Source: Bacteroidota bacterium
Lineage (GTDB): Bacteria; Bacteroidota; Bacteroidia; UBA8524
Direction of reading: 5' to 3'
NCBI GenBank assembly: GCA_016124735.1
Contig: WGMZ01000031.1
Coordinates: 52,147-116,146 of the forward strand
Length of the DNA: 64,000 bases
The position numbers were made by a program, and so were the translations under genes. Positions 45,448 through 62,980 of this stretch are shown here, in pieces (position 1 is the stretch's first letter; each line of letters begins with the position of its first letter). The notes beneath the pieces are model-generated. The model was not told the origin of the DNA. It worked only from the letters and a program-made list of their open reading frames with translations, and ran no database searches.

Positions 45448-47847
45448 CTAGTTTTTCCTGAGACGCAGTTTGGATTTTTTCTTCTGATGGTCCTCTTCAT
45501 AATAGCCATATCCATAACCGTAGCCATAACCGTAGCCATAGCCGTATCCGTAGCCATAGCCGTAACCATATGTTGAACTTACTCCTACATCATTCATGAT
45601 GACGGAAATCGACTTGTTACTGTGATTTTCCTCCAAATAATTTAATGAAGTCAACATTGGCTTTCTTGTGTATGATTGCCGAATTACATAAATAACAATA
45701 TCCGCAAACTTCATCAAATCATTCGCATCTGCCACCAATCCCATCGGAGGCGTATCCATTACAATATAGTCGAATCTTTCTTTTAGCTCAATGAGCATTT
45801 CTGCGAACTTCTCGCTCATCAATAATTCAGCAGGATTGGGTGGTGTCGGACCAGATGGGATTACGAATAAATTCGGGTTCATGGTCGGATGGATTACATC
45901 TTTCAGTTTCTCCGCACCAATAAGGTAATTCACTACACCCTTTTCGTTGGTAAGGTTGAAGTCATCAAAAATTGTGGGGTTCCGTAAGTCCAAACCAAGG
46001 ATGACTGTTTTCTTTTCCCCCAACGCAAGAATGGAAGCTAAGTTCATAGAACAATATGTTTTTCCTTCACCAGAAATGCTGGAGGTCACCAAAATAACTT
46101 TCTTCTCCTTACTGATAGATAAATACTGAAGATTTGTTCTTATCGCCCGGAAAGATTCGGATATACTCGTCTTAGGGTGTTCAAGTACAATTAAGTTCGT
46201 GCTCTTTTCACTGTGACCAACCAATCCCAATATATTTGCCTTGGAAATGCTTTGAACTTCTGCCAATTCATGTACTCTGTTGTCGAAATAACTGAATATC
46301 GAAATGCCACCTATCGGAATTAAAATACCAAGTAAAAATCCGATTGCATAATTCAGTGACTTTTTTGGAGAAATTACACCCAAAGCTACCGCTTCATCAA
46401 TAATCTTATTAGGTGAAACAATCGATGCCTTATTAATTTCACTTTCAGCCTTTTTCTCAAGAAGTAAAGTAAATAATGCGTCGTTCAGTAAATATTTTCT
46501 CTCAATAGTTAAATAGGTTCTTTCAACCTGAGGTAGTTTCGCAATTTCTTCATCGTATGAATTAATCTGGCGATCTAATTCCTGAATTCTGATGGATGAC
46601 CCTTGTTTTTGAGAATTCAGATTCTCCACCAATGTTTTTTTAAGCAATACTATCTGAGCATCAATACCATTCAGCAAGGTTCCTTCCTTCACAATCCCTG
46701 ATAACATATCCTGCCTCTGCGAATTCAAATGAATTAATTCATTTACCAAACCAATTAACACCGGATCTTGAACGCCCATCGAAGAAGGGGCCACAATATC
46801 GTCTATGGATCTACGGCCATGTACATAGTCTTCTAAAAAGTTCAGGTATTGGATTTGCAGGTCCTCTGATGACTTTTTGGCAATCAATACATCCAGTTTC
46901 TCAAAAATTCTTCCTCCTTCTTCCCCGATAGTTGTCAATCGGTGTGAAGAGTGAAAATCTTCTCTCAGATTTTCAACCTGATCCAGACTGTCCGACACTA
47001 TCGCCAATTGGGAATTTATAAAGTCAATGGTCTTTTCGGACTTTTCCTTGGCTTCCTTCAAACCAAATTGAATATAGGTTCGTGCAAGAGTATTTAAATA
47101 ATCTTTGATTTTTAACTCATTTCTACCTTTCAACTCCATTCTTATAGCCGACGATCCTTCCGCCTCTGGGTCAATCACCAGGTCTTTGTTGTATTTTTCG
47201 ATGAGAGATTCCTCGGTGTTAAACTTGATAGACATTCGTTCATTTCCCTTCACTGGCCCCTTCCTTATTAACCTGAAGTAAAACCCGTTCCAGCCAATAT
47301 TTTTATCAAATTCATATTCGTCCCGAAGTGTGGTATCCCACAAATCTTCAATCTCGTCCCTGTTTAATAGCTTCCAATTTCCTTCATTATCAAACTCTAT
47401 TTCGAGATTGACTTTTTCCATATACTCCGGAATACTGTCATATATCAATTTAATAGGCACATCCGGACCGTAGGTTTCATTGCTAAGCAGGCGACCAACA
47501 ATAAAATAGCTAATCCCAAAATCCAATTGATCAAGCGTGAGCCTGGTCATCTTGCGAGATTTAATTTTTACTACCTCATTCTCAAAAGTCAAGCGTGGGT
47601 TATAATAGCCCAAGGCGGACATCAATTGTTCAGGACCAAAAGATTCCTTTTCACTGCCATCGTCAATTAATAGTTTTAACTCTGTCTTATAGGTTGGTAA
47701 GGTATATCTGTTAACGAGATACGCAACAGACAAACCCAACAAAATACCGAATACGATTATTGGCCAAAAAGATAAAATTCTAAAAAGTAATGCCTTTAAA
47801 TCAATCGATTCACTTGCATTAGATGATTGGCGTTCCGAAGAAGTCAT
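45448..47847 (-). CDS. wzc: Polysaccharide co-polymerase / tyrosine autokinase (Wzc, BY-kinase) with a C-terminal (YG)11 tyrosine tail
   Basis: An N-terminal Wzz-like domain has two TM segments and long coiled coils. The C-terminal kinase has Walker A VTSSISGEGKTY and Walker B-like VIMDTPP. The tail is STYGYGYGYGYGYGYGYGYGYGYYEE. Confidence 0.85.
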   Translation of the reverse strand: MTSSERQSSNASESIDLKALLFRILSFWPIIVFGILLGLSVAYLVNRYTLPTYKTELKLLIDDGSEKESFGPEQLMSALGYYNPRLTFENEVVKIKSRKMTRLTLDQLDFGISYFIVGRLLSNETYGPDVPIKLIYDSIPEYMEKVNLEIEFDNEGNWKLLNRDEIEDLWDTTLRDEYEFDKNIGWNGFYFRLIRKGPVKGNERMSIKFNTEESLIEKYNKDLVIDPEAEGSSAIRMELKGRNELKIKDYLNTLARTYIQFGLKEAKEKSEKTIDFINSQLAIVSDSLDQVENLREDFHSSHRLTTIGEEGGRIFEKLDVLIAKKSSEDLQIQYLNFLEDYVHGRRSIDDIVAPSSMGVQDPVLIGLVNELIHLNSQRQDMLSGIVKEGTLLNGIDAQIVLLKKTLVENLNSQKQGSSIRIQELDRQINSYDEEIAKLPQVERTYLTIERKYLLNDALFTLLLEKKAESEINKASIVSPNKIIDEAVALGVISPKKSLNYAIGFLLGILIPIGGISIFSYFDNRVHELAEVQSISKANILGLVGHSEKSTNLIVLEHPKTSISESFRAIRTNLQYLSISKEKKVILVTSSISGEGKTYCSMNLASILALGEKKTVILGLDLRNPTIFDDFNLTNEKGVVNYLIGAEKLKDVIHPTMNPNLFVIPSGPTPPNPAELLMSEKFAEMLIELKERFDYIVMDTPPMGLVADANDLMKFADIVIYVIRQSYTRKPMLTSLNYLEENHSNKSISVIMNDVGVSSTYGYGYGYGYGYGYGYGYGYGYGYYEEDHQKKKSKLRLRKN
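45501..45570. repeat. Near-perfect tandem DNA repeat (period about 6 to 12 bp) encoding the (Tyr-Gly)n tail of Wzc
   Basis: The plus-strand sequence ATAGCCATATCCATAACCGTAGCCATAACCGTAGCCATAGCCGTATCCGTAGCCATAGCCGTAACCATA is the reverse complement of TAY/GGN codon pairs. Confidence 0.8.
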
Positions 47848-48993: not shown

Positions 48994-49153
48994 GGGCGGG
49001 GCGGGGGGCAAGGGGCAGAGGGCGTGGAGCAAGGGGCAGGGAGTAAAGAGCAGAGGGCGTGGAGCAAGGAGCGAGGGGCAGGGAGCGAGGGGCAGGGAGC
49101 AAGGGGCAGAGGGCAAGCAGAGAGCGTGGAGCCAGCGGGCAGGGAGCAGGGAG
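48994..49153. repeat. Polypurine (G/A-rich on the plus strand), GC-rich imperfect tandem repeat with G-quadruplex and triplex potential
   Basis: GGGCGGGGCGGGGGGCAAGGGGCAGAGGGCGTGGAGCAAGGGGCAGGGAG ... GGGGCAGGGAGCGAGGGGCAGGGAGCAAGGGGCAG ... The stretch is about 160 bp with only about 4 T and about 25 C. The 14-21 bp units GGGGCAGGGAGCGA and GGAGCAAGGGGCAGAGGGCGT recur. The local GC is far above the window average. Confidence 0.8.
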
Positions 49154-51319: not shown

Positions 51320-51400
51320 TAATCCCGGGTCAGTTCGAGAACTAAACAGTGTGATTTCTCGATCGTCTGGCACTTCTCGAACAGGCTCGAAGTGACTGAA
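51320..51400. repeat. Degenerate copy of the palindromic repeat family seen at 58.8-59.65 kb
   Basis: GTCAGTTCGAGAACT ... CACTTCTCGAACAGGCTCGAAGTGACTG shares the GTCAGTTCGAG / CTCGAAGTGAC arms with the repeats flanking the GIY-YIG gene. Confidence 0.5.
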
Positions 51401-58724: not shown

Positions 58725-58811
58725 TCCATTCCGGCACCTAATACTGGTCAGCAGTTTAATACGAAATAAACGAAAGTCACTCAGGAAACTGGGTGGCTTT
58801 TTTGTTTCAGT

Positions 58812-58945
58812 CAGTTCGAGCTTGTCGAGAACTGCTTTACCCTTATTGAGTTCACTTCTCGACAAGCTCGAAGTGACTTTGCAAGCTCGAAGTGACTTTA
58901 CAAGCTCGAAGTGACTTTGCAAGCTCGAAGTGACTTCAACCAATG
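58812..58945. repeat. Palindromic repeat unit (about 70 bp hairpin) followed by 3.5 copies of the 19-bp tandem GCAAGCTCGAAGTGACTTT
   Basis: GTCAGTTCGAGCTTGTCGAGAACTGCTTTACCCTTATTGAGTTCACTTCTCGACAAGCTCGAAGTGACTTT has about 22-bp arms with one mismatch. It is followed by (G/A)CAAGCTCGAAGTGACTTT repeated. Confidence 0.85.
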
Positions 58946-59010
58946 TTGAAATAAAGTAAAATTACATTTCCTACTTGACCTCGTTAATCCTCATTTATTA
59001 AATTCTGAAA

Positions 59011-59301
59011 GTGCGTATTTTCTATGTCTATATAGTGCTCTGTTCAGACTCAACTTATTATGTCGGCATTACAAACGACTTAGTTAGAAGAATACTCGAA
59101 CATAATTCTGGAAAATTTCAAAATTCCTATACTGCTCACAGAAGACCCGTTAAACTCGTTTTCTCAGAAAAATTATTTGATCCTAGCGAGGCTATCAGAC
59201 GAGAAAAACAAATTAAACGGTGGGGACAAGCCAAGAAGAAAGCTTTGATAGCAGGAGATTTCAAATCACTTCCACATTTATCAAAGAGCAAGTCTTCATG
59301 A
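59011..59301 (+). CDS. Small GIY-YIG-domain nuclease-family protein
   Basis: The 96-aa protein begins FYVYIVLCSDSTYYVGITNDLVRRILEHN, the GIY ... YIG core with Arg and Glu. Confidence 0.75.
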   Translation: MRIFYVYIVLCSDSTYYVGITNDLVRRILEHNSGKFQNSYTAHRRPVKLVFSEKLFDPSEAIRREKQIKRWGQAKKKALIAGDFKSLPHLSKSKSS

Positions 59302-59304
59302 TAA

Positions 59305-59647
59305 GTCAGTTCGAGCCTGTCGAGAACTGCTTTATCCTTATTGAGTTCACTTCTCGACAAGCTCGAAGTGACTTTGAATATGCTATTTGCCACGGAATTT
59401 ATAAATACGACCGTCCATTTCAGTCAGTTCGAGCTTGTCGAGAACTGCTTTACCCTTATTGAGTTCACTTCTCGACAAGCTCGAAGTGACTTTGAATATG
59501 CCATTTGCCACGGAATTTATAAATACGACCGTCCATTTCAGTCAGTTCGAGCCTGTCGAGAACTGCTTTATCCCTATTAAGTTCACTTCTCGACAAGCTC
59601 GAAGTGACTTTACAAGCTCGAAGTGACTTTGCAAGCTCGAAGTGACT
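59305..59647. repeat. Tandem array (about 118-bp unit times 2.6) of the same palindromic element, ending in 19-bp CAAGCTCGAAGTGACTTT tandem copies
   Basis: Units span 59305-59422 and 59423-59540 and are more than 95% identical. Each contains the GTCAGTTCGAGC(C/T)TGTCGAGAACTG ... CACTTCTCGACAAGCTCGAAGTGAC hairpin plus the spacer GAATATGC(T/C)ATTTGCCACGGAATTTATAAATACGACCGTCCATTTCA. A partial third unit and the 19-bp repeats follow. Confidence 0.85.
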
Positions 59648-59653
59648 AACTTC

Positions 59654-62600
59654 CTACTCCGAAATATTCCTGAAATACTCGCGGATCTTTTCCTTGTAAT
59701 ATGGGCGCAACTCAGCAGGGACGTTTTTTAACAATTCGTTTTCCCGTTCCTTTTGTTTGAGGTATTCTTCTAATTCAGGAGGCAGGGTTCTTTCATTCTG
59801 TTTGCCTTCCTTGGATTCGCGTTTTTTATCCTGCTCTCTTGTCTGCTCTGCTTTCTCATGTTCCAGCATGCGTGTTTCGATATCGCGCACACGTTTCAAG
59901 GTTTCCAGATTCAATTTTTTATTGACGAGGTCTTTCTCCAACTTCTCCATCTCTTCGATGGTTTTCTGCAATTCGCCGGCCTCTTTTCCATTCCCTTCTT
60001 GCTGCAATTGCTTTTTCATTTCCTGGAGCATGCGACGTATCATTTCCTGCTGGGCAGCCATTTGCGCCCATTGTTTGCTACCCGGAGACTGACCATTCTC
60101 TTGCTGCCCCTTCATTTTTCCCAATTCCTTCTTTAATTGCTCCTGCATCTCTCTCATCTTCTTCATATCGCCCTGACCTTTTTTTGGCTTGGACTTTTTA
60201 GAACTACCGCCTCCTGACCCGTCACTGCTCATCATGTCATCCTGCATATTCTTCAGGATTTCACTTAGCATAACAGCCAAATTATTCATGCTGGTCATGG
60301 TGTATTGCTGAGACACTGCCGCATCTCTGGTTTGACGTTGTGATAGTTGATACAATGAGCGATTGAGGTTATCATTGATTTGCCCCATCTGTTTATTGAT
60401 ATAACTCTTCAACACAATGGCGCGTTTACTCAATGCCAATAAACTGTCTTCTATAATTTTCGAATCATCGCGAATCTTTTTCTGTTTTTGAACCAGTTCA
60501 ACATATTTAGGGTTATAACCCTGTATCGCCGACAATTCATCTATCAAACTCTCCTGATCAAATGAGAGTTGAATCAAATTTTCAAGAATTCCACGGAGTG
60601 TTTCATAGTCTTCCATATGTTGCTCCATCTCTGTCGATTTCATTTCCTGACGCATTTTATCCGCCAGGTCTTTCATCTTCTTGGCTGCTTCTTTCTGCTT
60701 TTTGGAAGCTTTCTCATTCTCCTTTTCCTTCAGCTGATCTGAACCCTCTTCCATCTCCTGACTAATGCTATCCATTTCCTCTTCCGGCACCTCATAATCC
60801 ATTGGTTCCTCCAATTGCTCATTCAGGCTATCGGTTTTATCCATGTCTTCCTGAAGCTTTTCAAATTCCTTATTCAGAGAATCCTGCTTTTGTTTCAGCC
60901 CTTCAGGAGTGCCTTTTTCTTCCTTTGTTTCCTCCGCCAGTTTTTCCTGTTCTTCCGCCAGCTTGTCCAGCTCCTCTACCTGTTCATCCATCCGCTTCTC
61001 CACTTCAAAGCGTTTGTACATTTCCAGCATGCGGTCTAACTGCTTATCAAGCTCCTTTTCACCCAATTCCATCTTTTCCAGCTCCTGCTTCAAAAGATCT
61101 TTGTTTTGATCCTCCATCATTCGCTGCATATCTTCCATCATCTTCTTCAACTCGTCGGAGAAGAGCTCGTCAAACATTTTTTCAAGTTGGCGCTGTTTTT
61201 CCAACATTTCCTGTTGAAGCGGGTTGAATTCATTGTTCTGCTGATTGATGTTCTCATTTTTCTTTTTCAACTCATCAATCTGCTTTTTCAACTCTTCCTG
61301 CTTTTTCAAGAGCTCCTCCAAATCTTTCTTGTCCTGCCAGGTAAGTTCTTTCTTCTCCAGAAGCTTTTGCTGCAACTTTCTGATGTCCTTAGCCAATTTT
61401 CTGGTCTCCTTCATCGCTTCCTCCAGCTCTTGTTTCACTTCATTGCTTCGCTTTTCGTTCTGCTGTTTCAGCTGATCTCTGTTGGCTATTTCATACAACT
61501 TCGTCTGAGAAAGTGTACGCTTAGGTCCGTGAATCCCATCGTTATCATAAATCTCGAAATAGTATTCCAGTTTATCTCCCGGTTCAATACCCAATTCAGT
61601 CAGGTCCCAAACGTGAAAGAACTGCTGTTCCTTTTTCCCCGGACTTAGTGCTAATTTAATTTTATCCCCTTTTCCTCTTTTGGAAGGATTCTCCGAACTG
61701 ATAAAGTGATAAACAAACTGCAGAGATGAAAATCCATAGTCATCGCTTACTTCTCCTACAAAATAGGCAACACGGCCCTGGCTGTTGTCTTCTTTCTCTT
61801 GCACCTGAATAGATGGATATGCATCCTGTATAATGTTGATTTGAAAAGGAACAGAATCCTGGATAACACCTTTTTCTCTTTCAAGTCCGATATAATAGCG
61901 CAGATTTTTGAACAAGTTCCTGCTGATCCGGAAATCATCTTCACCCTTCTGTTTCAGGTATTCAATAGGTTCTTCTCCTAAACGAATCCACACACCTTGT
62001 GCATTTTTTACCTGGATATCCCAATTAACTCTGGTTCCTTCCGGAATATTCAAATCACCGGTATTGTCCAAAGACTCATCTTTTAATCCGGTATAAGTCG
62101 GATAGTTCAGATGGATTTTCATTCCTGCCATTAAGGCCTTGGAGACTACCTGAAAATGATAGGTTTCCGATTGAAAGGTTCCCGCTTCAAAATCAAAATC
62201 AAAATCCTTCTGAAGGTTCCGCATCAGGTAACGGTGCTCGTCTCCTCCCATGGCATTCATCTTATACCGTTTTCCATCTGATAGGAAGTAAACGTCCTGC
62301 GGTATTTCTTCGCCCTGAAGTTTGAGAATAAGCTCCACTTCATCATTTTGACCGGCTTTCAAGTCCTTGTTTTCCAGGATAAATTTAAACGGCGCTTCTT
62401 CCGCAAATTCTTTGTTGTACTGTACCAGGCGTAGGGTTCCTTCCCGCATGATTCGTGCATTGATGAAAAACAAGCCTATTCCCGCTACGACCGGTATTAT
62501 CAGGTATTTTAAGTACTTTCTGTTCGCTTTGAAATCAATGGCCTGAACGAACGGAATTGGCTTCAGTTCCTCACTTTTTTGCCGAATACTGGCCTCAATT

Positions 62601-62980
62601 AAAGTTTGATTTCCAATATCCTTTCCTGCCAGCTCATTTAATTGAAGCGTATTTAAGAGCTTGTCTTTTACTTCTCCGAAATGCTCTCCGATAATTCGGC
62701 TGGCCTGTTCATGGTTGATTCTTTTTCCAATAGAAAGCAATCCGGCAAGCGGCACAATGAGGTACCGATAAAATATAAACAAGATGAGTGCTAACGAGCT
62801 ATAAAATAAAAACGCTCTCACCCCGGAGTGAAAGCGTCCATAATATTCTAAAAGAGTAACGAGAAGGTAGTCGACTAATGCAATGGCCAGGAAATAAATC
62901 AATCCTTTAATCAATAAGTTTTTGTAATACTTTCTGATAAAGGCATCGAGTTTTTGTATGAGTAGTTCGTAGGCAGACAC
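59654..62980 (-). CDS. Large (1108 aa) N-terminally membrane-anchored protein with a very long K/E/Q-rich coiled-coil region (possibly DUF4175-like)
   Basis: Two or three N-terminal TM helices are followed by a globular region of about 450 aa, then about 500 aa of heptad-like charged sequence (EELKKQIDELKKKNENINQQ ... EKLAEETKEEK ...). Antisense ORFs in this region arise from low complexity. Confidence 0.6.
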   Translation of the reverse strand: MSAYELLIQKLDAFIRKYYKNLLIKGLIYFLAIALVDYLLVTLLEYYGRFHSGVRAFLFYSSLALILFIFYRYLIVPLAGLLSIGKRINHEQASRIIGEHFGEVKDKLLNTLQLNELAGKDIGNQTLIEASIRQKSEELKPIPFVQAIDFKANRKYLKYLIIPVVAGIGLFFINARIMREGTLRLVQYNKEFAEEAPFKFILENKDLKAGQNDEVELILKLQGEEIPQDVYFLSDGKRYKMNAMGGDEHRYLMRNLQKDFDFDFEAGTFQSETYHFQVVSKALMAGMKIHLNYPTYTGLKDESLDNTGDLNIPEGTRVNWDIQVKNAQGVWIRLGEEPIEYLKQKGEDDFRISRNLFKNLRYYIGLEREKGVIQDSVPFQINIIQDAYPSIQVQEKEDNSQGRVAYFVGEVSDDYGFSSLQFVYHFISSENPSKRGKGDKIKLALSPGKKEQQFFHVWDLTELGIEPGDKLEYYFEIYDNDGIHGPKRTLSQTKLYEIANRDQLKQQNEKRSNEVKQELEEAMKETRKLAKDIRKLQQKLLEKKELTWQDKKDLEELLKKQEELKKQIDELKKKNENINQQNNEFNPLQQEMLEKQRQLEKMFDELFSDELKKMMEDMQRMMEDQNKDLLKQELEKMELGEKELDKQLDRMLEMYKRFEVEKRMDEQVEELDKLAEEQEKLAEETKEEKGTPEGLKQKQDSLNKEFEKLQEDMDKTDSLNEQLEEPMDYEVPEEEMDSISQEMEEGSDQLKEKENEKASKKQKEAAKKMKDLADKMRQEMKSTEMEQHMEDYETLRGILENLIQLSFDQESLIDELSAIQGYNPKYVELVQKQKKIRDDSKIIEDSLLALSKRAIVLKSYINKQMGQINDNLNRSLYQLSQRQTRDAAVSQQYTMTSMNNLAVMLSEILKNMQDDMMSSDGSGGGSSKKSKPKKGQGDMKKMREMQEQLKKELGKMKGQQENGQSPGSKQWAQMAAQQEMIRRMLQEMKKQLQQEGNGKEAGELQKTIEEMEKLEKDLVNKKLNLETLKRVRDIETRMLEHEKAEQTREQDKKRESKEGKQNERTLPPELEEYLKQKERENELLKNVPAELRPYYKEKIREYFRNISE

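Follow-up and report, generated by a model that had tools for sequence, protein, structure and literature searches.

A miniature GIY-YIG nuclease gene bracketed by tagged hairpin repeats in a Bacteroidota genome, a probable divergent example of the Ssn/SRM pairing

This study concerns a 64-kb stretch of DNA from a Bacteroidota bacterium (contig WGMZ01000031.1 of assembly GCA_016124735.1, positions 52,147 to 116,146; the whole stretch is referred to herein as the window), in which a gene for a 96-residue GIY-YIG nuclease is bracketed by hairpin repeats. We propose that this Bacteroidota locus is probably a pair of nuclease and repeat of the Ssn/SRM type. The principle of such a pair is already known, as ssn genes were reported in 2025 to be flanked by hairpin repeats, termed NTS in Neisseria and SRM generally, that are present in hundreds of copies (Chenal et al., Nat Commun 2025, PMC11893778), and the window pair, on this reading, is a divergent example of the published pairing and not a new kind of element. 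What is new is a GAG/CGA-type class of tagged hairpin and a clade of proteins in Bacteroidota, both missed by the published search pattern, together with a monomer/dimer model of the repeat.

The nuclease gene and its flanking repeats

The 96-residue protein, called as a GIY-YIG gene product in the initial annotation, indeed matches Pfam family PF01541 over residues 4-76 (E=3.3e-18), and the catalytic residues Y7, Y17, G19, R27, H31, and E65 are kept both in it and in 30 homologues. It is 100% identical to an NCBI entry named "GIY-YIG nuclease family protein [Bacteroidetes bacterium]", NCBIfam contains no model for it, and its best matches among solved structures are the UPF0213 proteins 1ZG2 and 1YWL (E about 1e-11). 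Together with the repeats, the gene occupies the gap between two convergent genes, which encode a fatty-acid desaturase and a 1108-residue DUF4175 protein, and only one copy of the nuclease gene is present within the window. Hairpin repeats lie less than 500 bp from the gene on both sides, one dimer upstream and three downstream, and with a decayed dimer elsewhere the 64-kb window holds five dimer sites at two loci. The features are as follows, where alpha and beta are the two monomers, described below, of which each dimer consists.

58772-58801, canonical terminator of the desaturase gene, its own, upstream of the hairpins beside the nuclease gene
58809-58878, head-to-head dimer 1, tags outward, right after the desaturase terminator
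58810-58833, + strand, alpha monomer of dimer 1, GTCAGTTCGAGCTTGTCGAGAACT
58854-58877, - strand, beta monomer of dimer 1, GTCACTTCGAGCTTGTCGAGAAGT
58863-58936, - strand, 19-bp tandem array of 3.9 copies, each the tagged 5' half of the beta monomer (GTCACTTCGAGCTTG on the - strand)
58937-59010, + strand, AT-rich spacer 5' of the nuclease gene, with a weak sigma-70-like match at 58975-59004
59011-59301, + strand, gene for the 96-residue single-domain GIY-YIG nuclease (PF01541), GTG start
59304-59373, head-to-head dimer 2, 2 bp past the nuclease stop codon, alpha at 59305-59328 (+), beta at 59349-59372 (-)
59304-59611, tandem array of period 118 bp, 2.6 copies, 96% matches (Tandem Repeats Finder)
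59374-59421, 48-nt spacer of the 118-bp tandem unit, with a second copy at 59492-59539
59422-59491, head-to-head dimer 3, alpha at 59423-59446 (+), beta at 59467-59490 (-)
59540-59609, head-to-head dimer 4, alpha at 59541-59564 (+), beta at 59585-59608 (-)
59593-59647, - strand, 19-bp tandem array of 2.9 copies of beta half-monomers
51330-51396, decayed dimer between the IMPDH (guaB-type) gene and ccmF

The initial annotation had described one hairpin upstream, 2.6 tandem units of 118 bp downstream, 19-bp tandem copies at the end of both flanks, and a degenerate copy between guaB and ccmF, and all of these were recovered. Its inverted repeat also stands, with arms of 26-27 nt rather than about 22 bp: the four 70-nt palindromes are near-identical, their arms are 88-92% complementary, and the loop is 18 nt. 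As DNA, the 76-nt unit folds at -23.3 kcal/mol (z = -7.9). The 15-mer CAAGCTCGAAGTGAC is found 17 times in the window with up to three mismatches, compared with 1.4 times expected, and none of 100 shuffles matched that count. The open reading frames at 59220-59626 are read-throughs of the repeats, as had been suspected, and the last array, at 59593-59647, stops 6 bp short of the stop codon (59654) of the convergent 1108-residue gene. The AT-rich spacer is likely to be the promoter and 5' leader of the nuclease gene.

The repeat unit is a tagged monomer

The true repeat unit is smaller than the 118 bp assumed in the initial annotation. It is a 24-25-nt stem-loop with an unpaired 5' tag, and the 70-nt palindrome is a head-to-head dimer of two such units; this shorter common element was recognised from the homologues of the nuclease and their flanks. 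The monomer has the form xGTC-A-N4-GAG, a loop of 5-6 nt, and CGA-N4'-T, where N4' complements N4. Nine intact monomers are present in the window and none in shuffles, four of them on the + strand with N4 = GTTC (alpha) and five on the - strand with N4 = CTTC (beta). All window copies are alpha-beta heterodimers, joined head-to-head with the tags outside, while the 19-bp tandems consist of tagged beta half-monomers. In the decayed dimer the beta monomer is intact (51372-51396, - strand, 6-nt loop) and the alpha monomer has neither its loop nor its 3' half (GTCAGTTCGAGAACT).

The pairing within the monomer was examined by covariation in two ways. In the first, a pattern that leaves the stem unconstrained yielded 141 distinct monomers, whose covariation score was 0.561, compared with 0.173 for shuffles (0 of 500 reached the observed value) and at most 0.165 for slid controls; many double changes were seen at four of the stem pairs. 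In the second, the search pattern used for genome hairpins (see below) left the partner base of position 5 free, and position 5 and its partner were complementary in 126 of 126 monomers among the 119 genome loci listed (G..C in 69 and C..G in 57). These positions are exactly where the long palindrome has its two conserved "mismatches", which within the monomers form a G-C pair (alpha) and a C-G pair (beta). Each strand thus retains its own monomer stem to the detriment of the long hairpin. Neither the tag nor GAG/CGA changes, and N4 varies freely so long as it is paired. The GTC of the tag is invariant by selection; an A follows it in at least 90% of monomers, and most copies have T or C before it, whereas those of the window have A. 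The first stem pair is A-T in 80 of the 141 monomers, and the second is C-G, G-C, or T-A about equally often.

Dispersal in other genomes

The hairpin is a multi-copy, intergenic repeat that is dispersed over many genomes. The initial annotation had considered that it might occur at this locus only; a scan of one genome per species for GTCAGTTCGAG-N30-60-CTCGAAGTGAC found it at no fewer than 119 loci, the ones listed being mostly from Bacteroidota (Flavobacterium, Myroides, Paenimyroides, Chryseobacterium, Sphingobacteriaceae, Arenibacter, Winogradskyella, and many metagenome-assembled genomes), and several assemblies have at least 2-6 copies each among the matches listed. Exact matches were also seen in assemblies labelled Latescibacterota, Gemmatimonadetes, Peribacteria, Vulcanimicrobiota, and Leptospiraceae (L005, L026, L028, L030, and L057). 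Of the 119 hairpins listed, 106 are intergenic, often 10-50 bp from gene ends, with no preferred orientation towards the adjacent genes (32 co-directional on the + strand, 31 co-directional on the - strand, 17 convergent, and 9 divergent). Both monomers are intact in 44 of the 121 hairpins at these loci. A comparison with miniature inverted-repeat transposable elements, which the initial annotation had drawn, is not borne out, as no target-site duplication above expectation abuts the 119 hairpins listed. The viral contig collection contained no copy of the hairpin, and a literature search for the repeat words returned unrelated primers only.

A variant form is found in Flavobacterium-type copies (L002, L023, L029, L068, L082, and others), where an alpha monomer (GTCAGTTCGAGTG ... 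GTGTATCGAGAAC) is split and its loop contains a beta monomer, on the opposite strand and with a 12-nt loop of its own. These copies look as if one repeat had been inserted into another at its loop. A pseudoknot was considered for them and rejected, as a monomer nested in the loop of another explains them better.

Association of the repeat with nuclease homologues

The repeats are strongly associated, in a preferred orientation, with the clade of the window nuclease. We analyzed 80 metagenome loci with nuclease homologues, found using a 9-sequence alignment, in which the density of strict monomers is 1.59/kb within 300 bp of the homologous GIY-YIG genes and 0.050/kb elsewhere, a 32-fold difference; homologous genes elsewhere thus have monomers of this kind at their flanks, the absence of which had also been contemplated. 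Of the 54 closest homologues, 34 have strict monomers, and 16 of these have them on both sides of the gene. The tags mostly point outward, with 28 upstream monomers on the + strand versus 10 on the -, and 22 downstream monomers on the - strand versus 11 on the +. Around the homologues, 18 different N4 stems are found with the tag and GAG/CGA unchanged.

Viewed from the repeat side, a GIY-YIG homologue is present at only 5 of the 119 hairpin loci listed. Three of these genome loci (L021, L088, and L093) have the homologue immediately upstream of the hairpin and oriented to it as in the window, and both here and in one metagenome locus (L169) the hairpin beside the gene has the GTTC/CTTC stems. 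In L021 (1902-2343), a Myroides metagenome-assembled genome, the homologue appears to be frameshifted, as tblastn matches it in two pieces that lie in different frames; after it come 83-bp tandem hairpins, an echo of the tandem array of the window.

Further homologues are also flanked by repeats. We implemented the published SRM pattern, HGTCWYN(0-2)YYVSBRHN(0-5)WNVSBRGN(0-2)RNCYNB, and found that it recognises NTS test sequences. Among alphaproteobacterial homologues, SRM pairs of this pattern are arranged head-to-head on both sides of the gene in Azospirillum lipoferum, and SRMs are found beside the gene in Sinorhizobium and Sphingobium. The homologues in L121, in L122, and on a Spirosoma plasmid are flanked by long inverted repeats that begin with GTCA (30-47 nt in L121 and L122). 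The best matches in the plasmid collection, from Sphingomonas (L124, hairpins at 1362-1450 and 1783-1806) and Methylobacterium (L125, hairpins at 1455-1483 and 1790-1818), are bracketed by hairpins of other types, outside both the SRM pattern and the strict monomer, although the Sphingomonas one shares the core GAGCGAAGTCGA with the Bacteroidota copies. It should be noted that 25 of the 80 metagenome contigs end within 300 bp of the homologous gene, and that an independent short-read assembly of the same organism (L120, a Logan contig) ends inside the first hairpin, at about position 58834 of the window. Such contig ends at the gene or hairpin are consistent with multi-copy repeats.

The proteins themselves are homologous to those flanked by SRMs. 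Profile comparison (hhalign) of the window clade with the SRM-flanked clade gave a probability of 99.8% (E=5e-29), the window protein is about 40% identical to SRM-flanked proteins and 36-41% identical to UPF0213 proteins, and a neighbour-joining tree of small GIY-YIG proteins contains three groups, namely UPF0213, the window clade, and the SRM-flanked clade.

The orthologous site in relatives

Two sets of relatives keep the genes that flank the locus, at about 70% nucleotide identity. In the nearer set (L217/L218, desaturase protein 73% identical) the gap between these genes is 445 bp and contains one monomer and one half-site (L217 6284-6387 and L218 2971-2997) and no nuclease gene. In the farther set (L219/L220, 69% identical) the gap is 416 bp (L219 7125-7541) and contains neither monomer nor gene. 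In the window the corresponding gap is 930 bp. Since the repeat-gene unit is present in the window and absent or partial in the relatives, it was gained or lost at this site, and the pattern appears to fit gain and loss equally, without telling the direction.

Proposed mechanism and alternative explanations

Based on these data and by analogy with the Ssn/SRM pair, whose defining context the window shares, we propose that the window system works in a similar manner, even though its repeats do not have the SRM pattern. Specifically, the 96-residue protein is predicted to bind the folded monomer in single-stranded DNA and to cut nearby, as SsnA does at NTS, so that it would be an active nuclease, specific for single strands, with the repeats as its substrate. 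Single-stranded DNA arising in replication, repair, or DNA uptake would expose the monomer. Repeated cutting and repair, or slippage, plausibly gave rise to the 118-bp and 19-bp tandem arrays, and the enzyme may have a role in spreading the repeats or its own gene.

Several results weigh against this proposal. The published SRM pattern is absent from the window and matches only once among the 80 homologue loci. By profile comparison the window clade is equally close to UPF0213 (YazA/YhbQ; 99.9%, E=3e-33), and, because that clade scores as close as the SRM-flanked clade, the window protein is no more than a candidate member of the Ssn family proper (cd10448). No strict monomer is present at 44 of the 80 homologue loci, where some contigs are truncated and some have other repeat types, and the repeats of the host were counted within a single 64-kb window of its genome. 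As for the monomer model, a lone monomer folds weakly (-4.2 kcal/mol, z about -1.5, with nearest-neighbour DNA parameters), the best fold of one common variant differs from the proposed stem, and the long dimer hairpin is much more stable at -23 kcal/mol. The argument for the monomer rests on covariation because nearest-neighbour energies alone do not favour it, and its fold may need protein or non-canonical G.A pairs.

A more far-reaching explanation, which extends the proposed pairing and is compatible with it, is that the repeat dimers and the gene together form an autonomous mobile element, either homing-like or insertion-sequence-like. In the homing-like version, the enzyme would cut empty dimers and repair would copy the gene from a filled copy, with the monomers as homology arms. 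The initial annotation had likewise suggested a mobile or selfish unit, which is hinted at only by presence and absence at the orthologous site, where relatives with 73% and 69% desaturase identity do not have the gene; the same pattern across a divergence of about 30%, however, fits loss equally well. In keeping with mobility, the gene in L121 and L122 lies between terminal inverted repeats, the monomers face outward around the gene at most loci, contigs often break beside it, as in the metagenome set and in Logan contig L120, and the Ssn authors themselves made the analogy to insertion sequences (PMC11893778). On the other side, the window contains a single copy of the gene, the 119 hairpins listed are not abutted by target-site duplications, and homology arms of only about 25 bp would be available. 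Moreover, GIY-YIG enzymes hydrolyse DNA, and are not known to have any strand-transfer or rejoining chemistry. We therefore regard a mobile element as an unlikely, though not far-fetched, extension of the pairing.

The remaining explanations deny the pairing or give it another meaning. The convergent gap could be a permissive site, lying as it does between two gene ends, that gathered REP-like repeats and an unrelated nuclease gene independently, and it is true that most of the 119 hairpin loci listed (about 113) have no GIY-YIG gene in the stretch examined. Few genes and many repeats are, however, expected of a trans-acting enzyme, as with ssnA and NTS in Neisseria, and the 32-fold enrichment of monomers beside homologues, their consistent orientation in independent metagenome loci, and the recurrence of the pairing in L021, L088, L093, L169, L122, and L126 lead us to disfavour coincidence strongly and to give it almost no weight. 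Hardly more credible is the idea that the protein is an ordinary housekeeping nuclease of the UPF0213 (YazA/YhbQ) type, unrelated to the repeats. UPF0213 proteins are its best structure matches (1ZG2 and 1YWL) and the profile similarity to that clade is marginally the highest; yet the operons of UPF0213 genes (trmNF-yazA-rsmI; yhbP/yhbS) are conserved, and overlapping neighbours there leave no room for hairpins, whereas the window gene is an isolated insert, missing at the orthologous site of relatives, and its product falls in a separate neighbour-joining clade whose members carry repeats. A role at the level of RNA, in which the hairpins are terminators, transcript stabilisers, or a structured RNA array as also envisaged in the initial annotation, we consider very improbable as well. 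As RNA, the units are very stable whichever strand is read (-37.5 and -41.6 kcal/mol, z = -5.3 and -6.6), hairpins are found at the 3' ends of three genes, and REPs stabilise transcripts in E. coli. The window nevertheless has no match in Rfam 15 at gathering thresholds and only sub-threshold noise at E<=10, no T-run follows the hairpins, the desaturase gene is served by a canonical terminator of its own that precedes them, and the hairpins in other genomes have no orientation preference. Furthermore, the alpha/beta asymmetry preserves a monomer stem separately on each strand, which is not expected of an RNA made from one strand.

The nuclease-plus-repeat pair of the Ssn/SRM type remains our preferred explanation, and it has several implications. 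It would extend the Ssn/SRM principle to Bacteroidota and to a repeat class outside the published search pattern and, because that pattern misses this class, systems of this type are probably under-counted. The monomer model provides a testable recognition rule, which is relevant to the proposed use of such enzymes as site-specific cutters of single-stranded DNA. In addition, the repeats break short-read assemblies and spawn spurious open reading frames such as those at 59220-59626, and their recognition improves annotation of Bacteroidota genomes. We also put forward, tentatively and as a doubtful proposition when taken whole, a stronger hypothesis in which the window proteins are a third clade of miniature GIY-YIG enzymes, besides SRM-flanked Ssn and UPF0213, that has co-evolved with its own xGTC-A-N4-GAG-loop-CGA-N4'-T hairpins. 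Such enzymes would read only the tag and GAG/CGA, the latter possibly as tandem G.A pairs, and so leave the stem free to vary. Enzymes and repeats would be spread across Bacteroidota and several other phyla, and the gene-plus-dimer unit would still be moving into dimers. If this were true, it would offer new specificities for cutting single-stranded DNA and a tractable case of non-transposase nucleases that multiply REP-like repeats.

Other features of the window

The convergent DUF4175 gene (59654-62980, - strand) has a long, E/K-rich, repeat-containing central region, with tandem DNA repeats at 60669-61317, and the synteny of this gene with the desaturase gene is kept in relatives. Two tandem arrays are found elsewhere in the window, a G-rich one at 48998-49153 with periods of 7, 14, 21, and 35 nt (GGGGCAGGGAGCAA-type units) and one at 45502-45570 with periods of 6, 12, and 18 nt (ATAGCCATAACC-type units).

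Comparison with known systems

The closest parallel is the Ssn family, whose members are single-domain GIY-YIG proteins of about 94 residues (CDD cd10448; PMC11893778). With 96 residues and intact catalytic positions, the window protein lies in the range of about 90-150 residues allowed for this family. In Neisseria, hundreds of NTS copies accompany one ssnA gene, and SsnA, which binds the folded NTS, cuts single-stranded DNA on its upstream side, being inactive on double-stranded DNA, on RNA, and on the complementary strand (PMC11893778). Like the window, Ssn/SRM systems combine a single-domain GIY-YIG protein of about 94-96 residues with hairpins on both flanks and an unpaired xGTC(A) tag, and like the window-type repeat, SRMs occur in many dispersed, mostly intergenic copies. 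The differences are that the SRM has a GC-rich stem of 8-9 bp, compared with N4 plus constant GAG/CGA and a 5-6-nt loop in the window, and that the window protein belongs to a separate clade, its host is a member of the Bacteroidota, and its activity is predicted.

The repeat itself resembles the CGTC-tagged REP superfamily, which includes Rickettsia RPE and Neisseria dRS3, the counterpart of NTS (Di Nocera et al., BMC Genomics 2013, PMC3733652). These REPs have stems of 8-9 bp in which the first and second pairs are A/T, loops of 4-5 nt, and TGTC variants of the tag; they are mostly head-to-head dimers, often heterodimers, occur in Bacteroidetes, and had no associated enzyme known at that time (PMC3733652). 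The window repeat shares with them the unpaired terminal tag of the CGTC/TGTC type, a stem of about eight positions that often opens with A-T, and a loop of about 5 nt, as well as the extragenic location and the arrangement as head-to-head dimers, often heterodimers. It differs from them in that the second stem position is mostly not A/T and in the constant GAG/CGA, which possibly forms tandem G.A pairs; furthermore, the CCA-type tail of CGTC-tagged REPs was not seen in the window-type repeat.

The initial annotation had likened the locus to RAYT-REP pairs, with a REP/BIME-like repeat family linked to a GIY-YIG nuclease that stands alone, and our data support this view of what is already published as Ssn/SRM. 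In RAYT-REP, REPIN, and BIME systems, as in the window, a single-copy enzyme gene lies between inverted copies of its presumed substrate hairpin, and the hairpins form inverted dimers and clusters. RAYT is, however, a Y1 HUH transposase (IS200/IS605-like) paired with a GTAG tag, whereas the window has a GIY-YIG hydrolase and an xGTC tag, and strand-transfer chemistry is not expected of the window enzyme. The UPF0213 proteins B. subtilis YazA and E. coli YhbQ are similar to the window protein in size and fold class, but their genes are in conserved housekeeping operons with no flanking hairpins: the genes of YazA and its Listeria homologue overlap trmNF and rsmI, and that of YhbQ lies between yhbP and an acetyltransferase gene (yhbS). 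Finally, GIY-YIG homing endonucleases of the I-TevI type have the same catalytic domain and a possibly selfish lifestyle in common with the window system, and differ from it in having a separate DNA-binding domain, in cutting double-stranded DNA, and in residing in introns or as free-standing phage genes.

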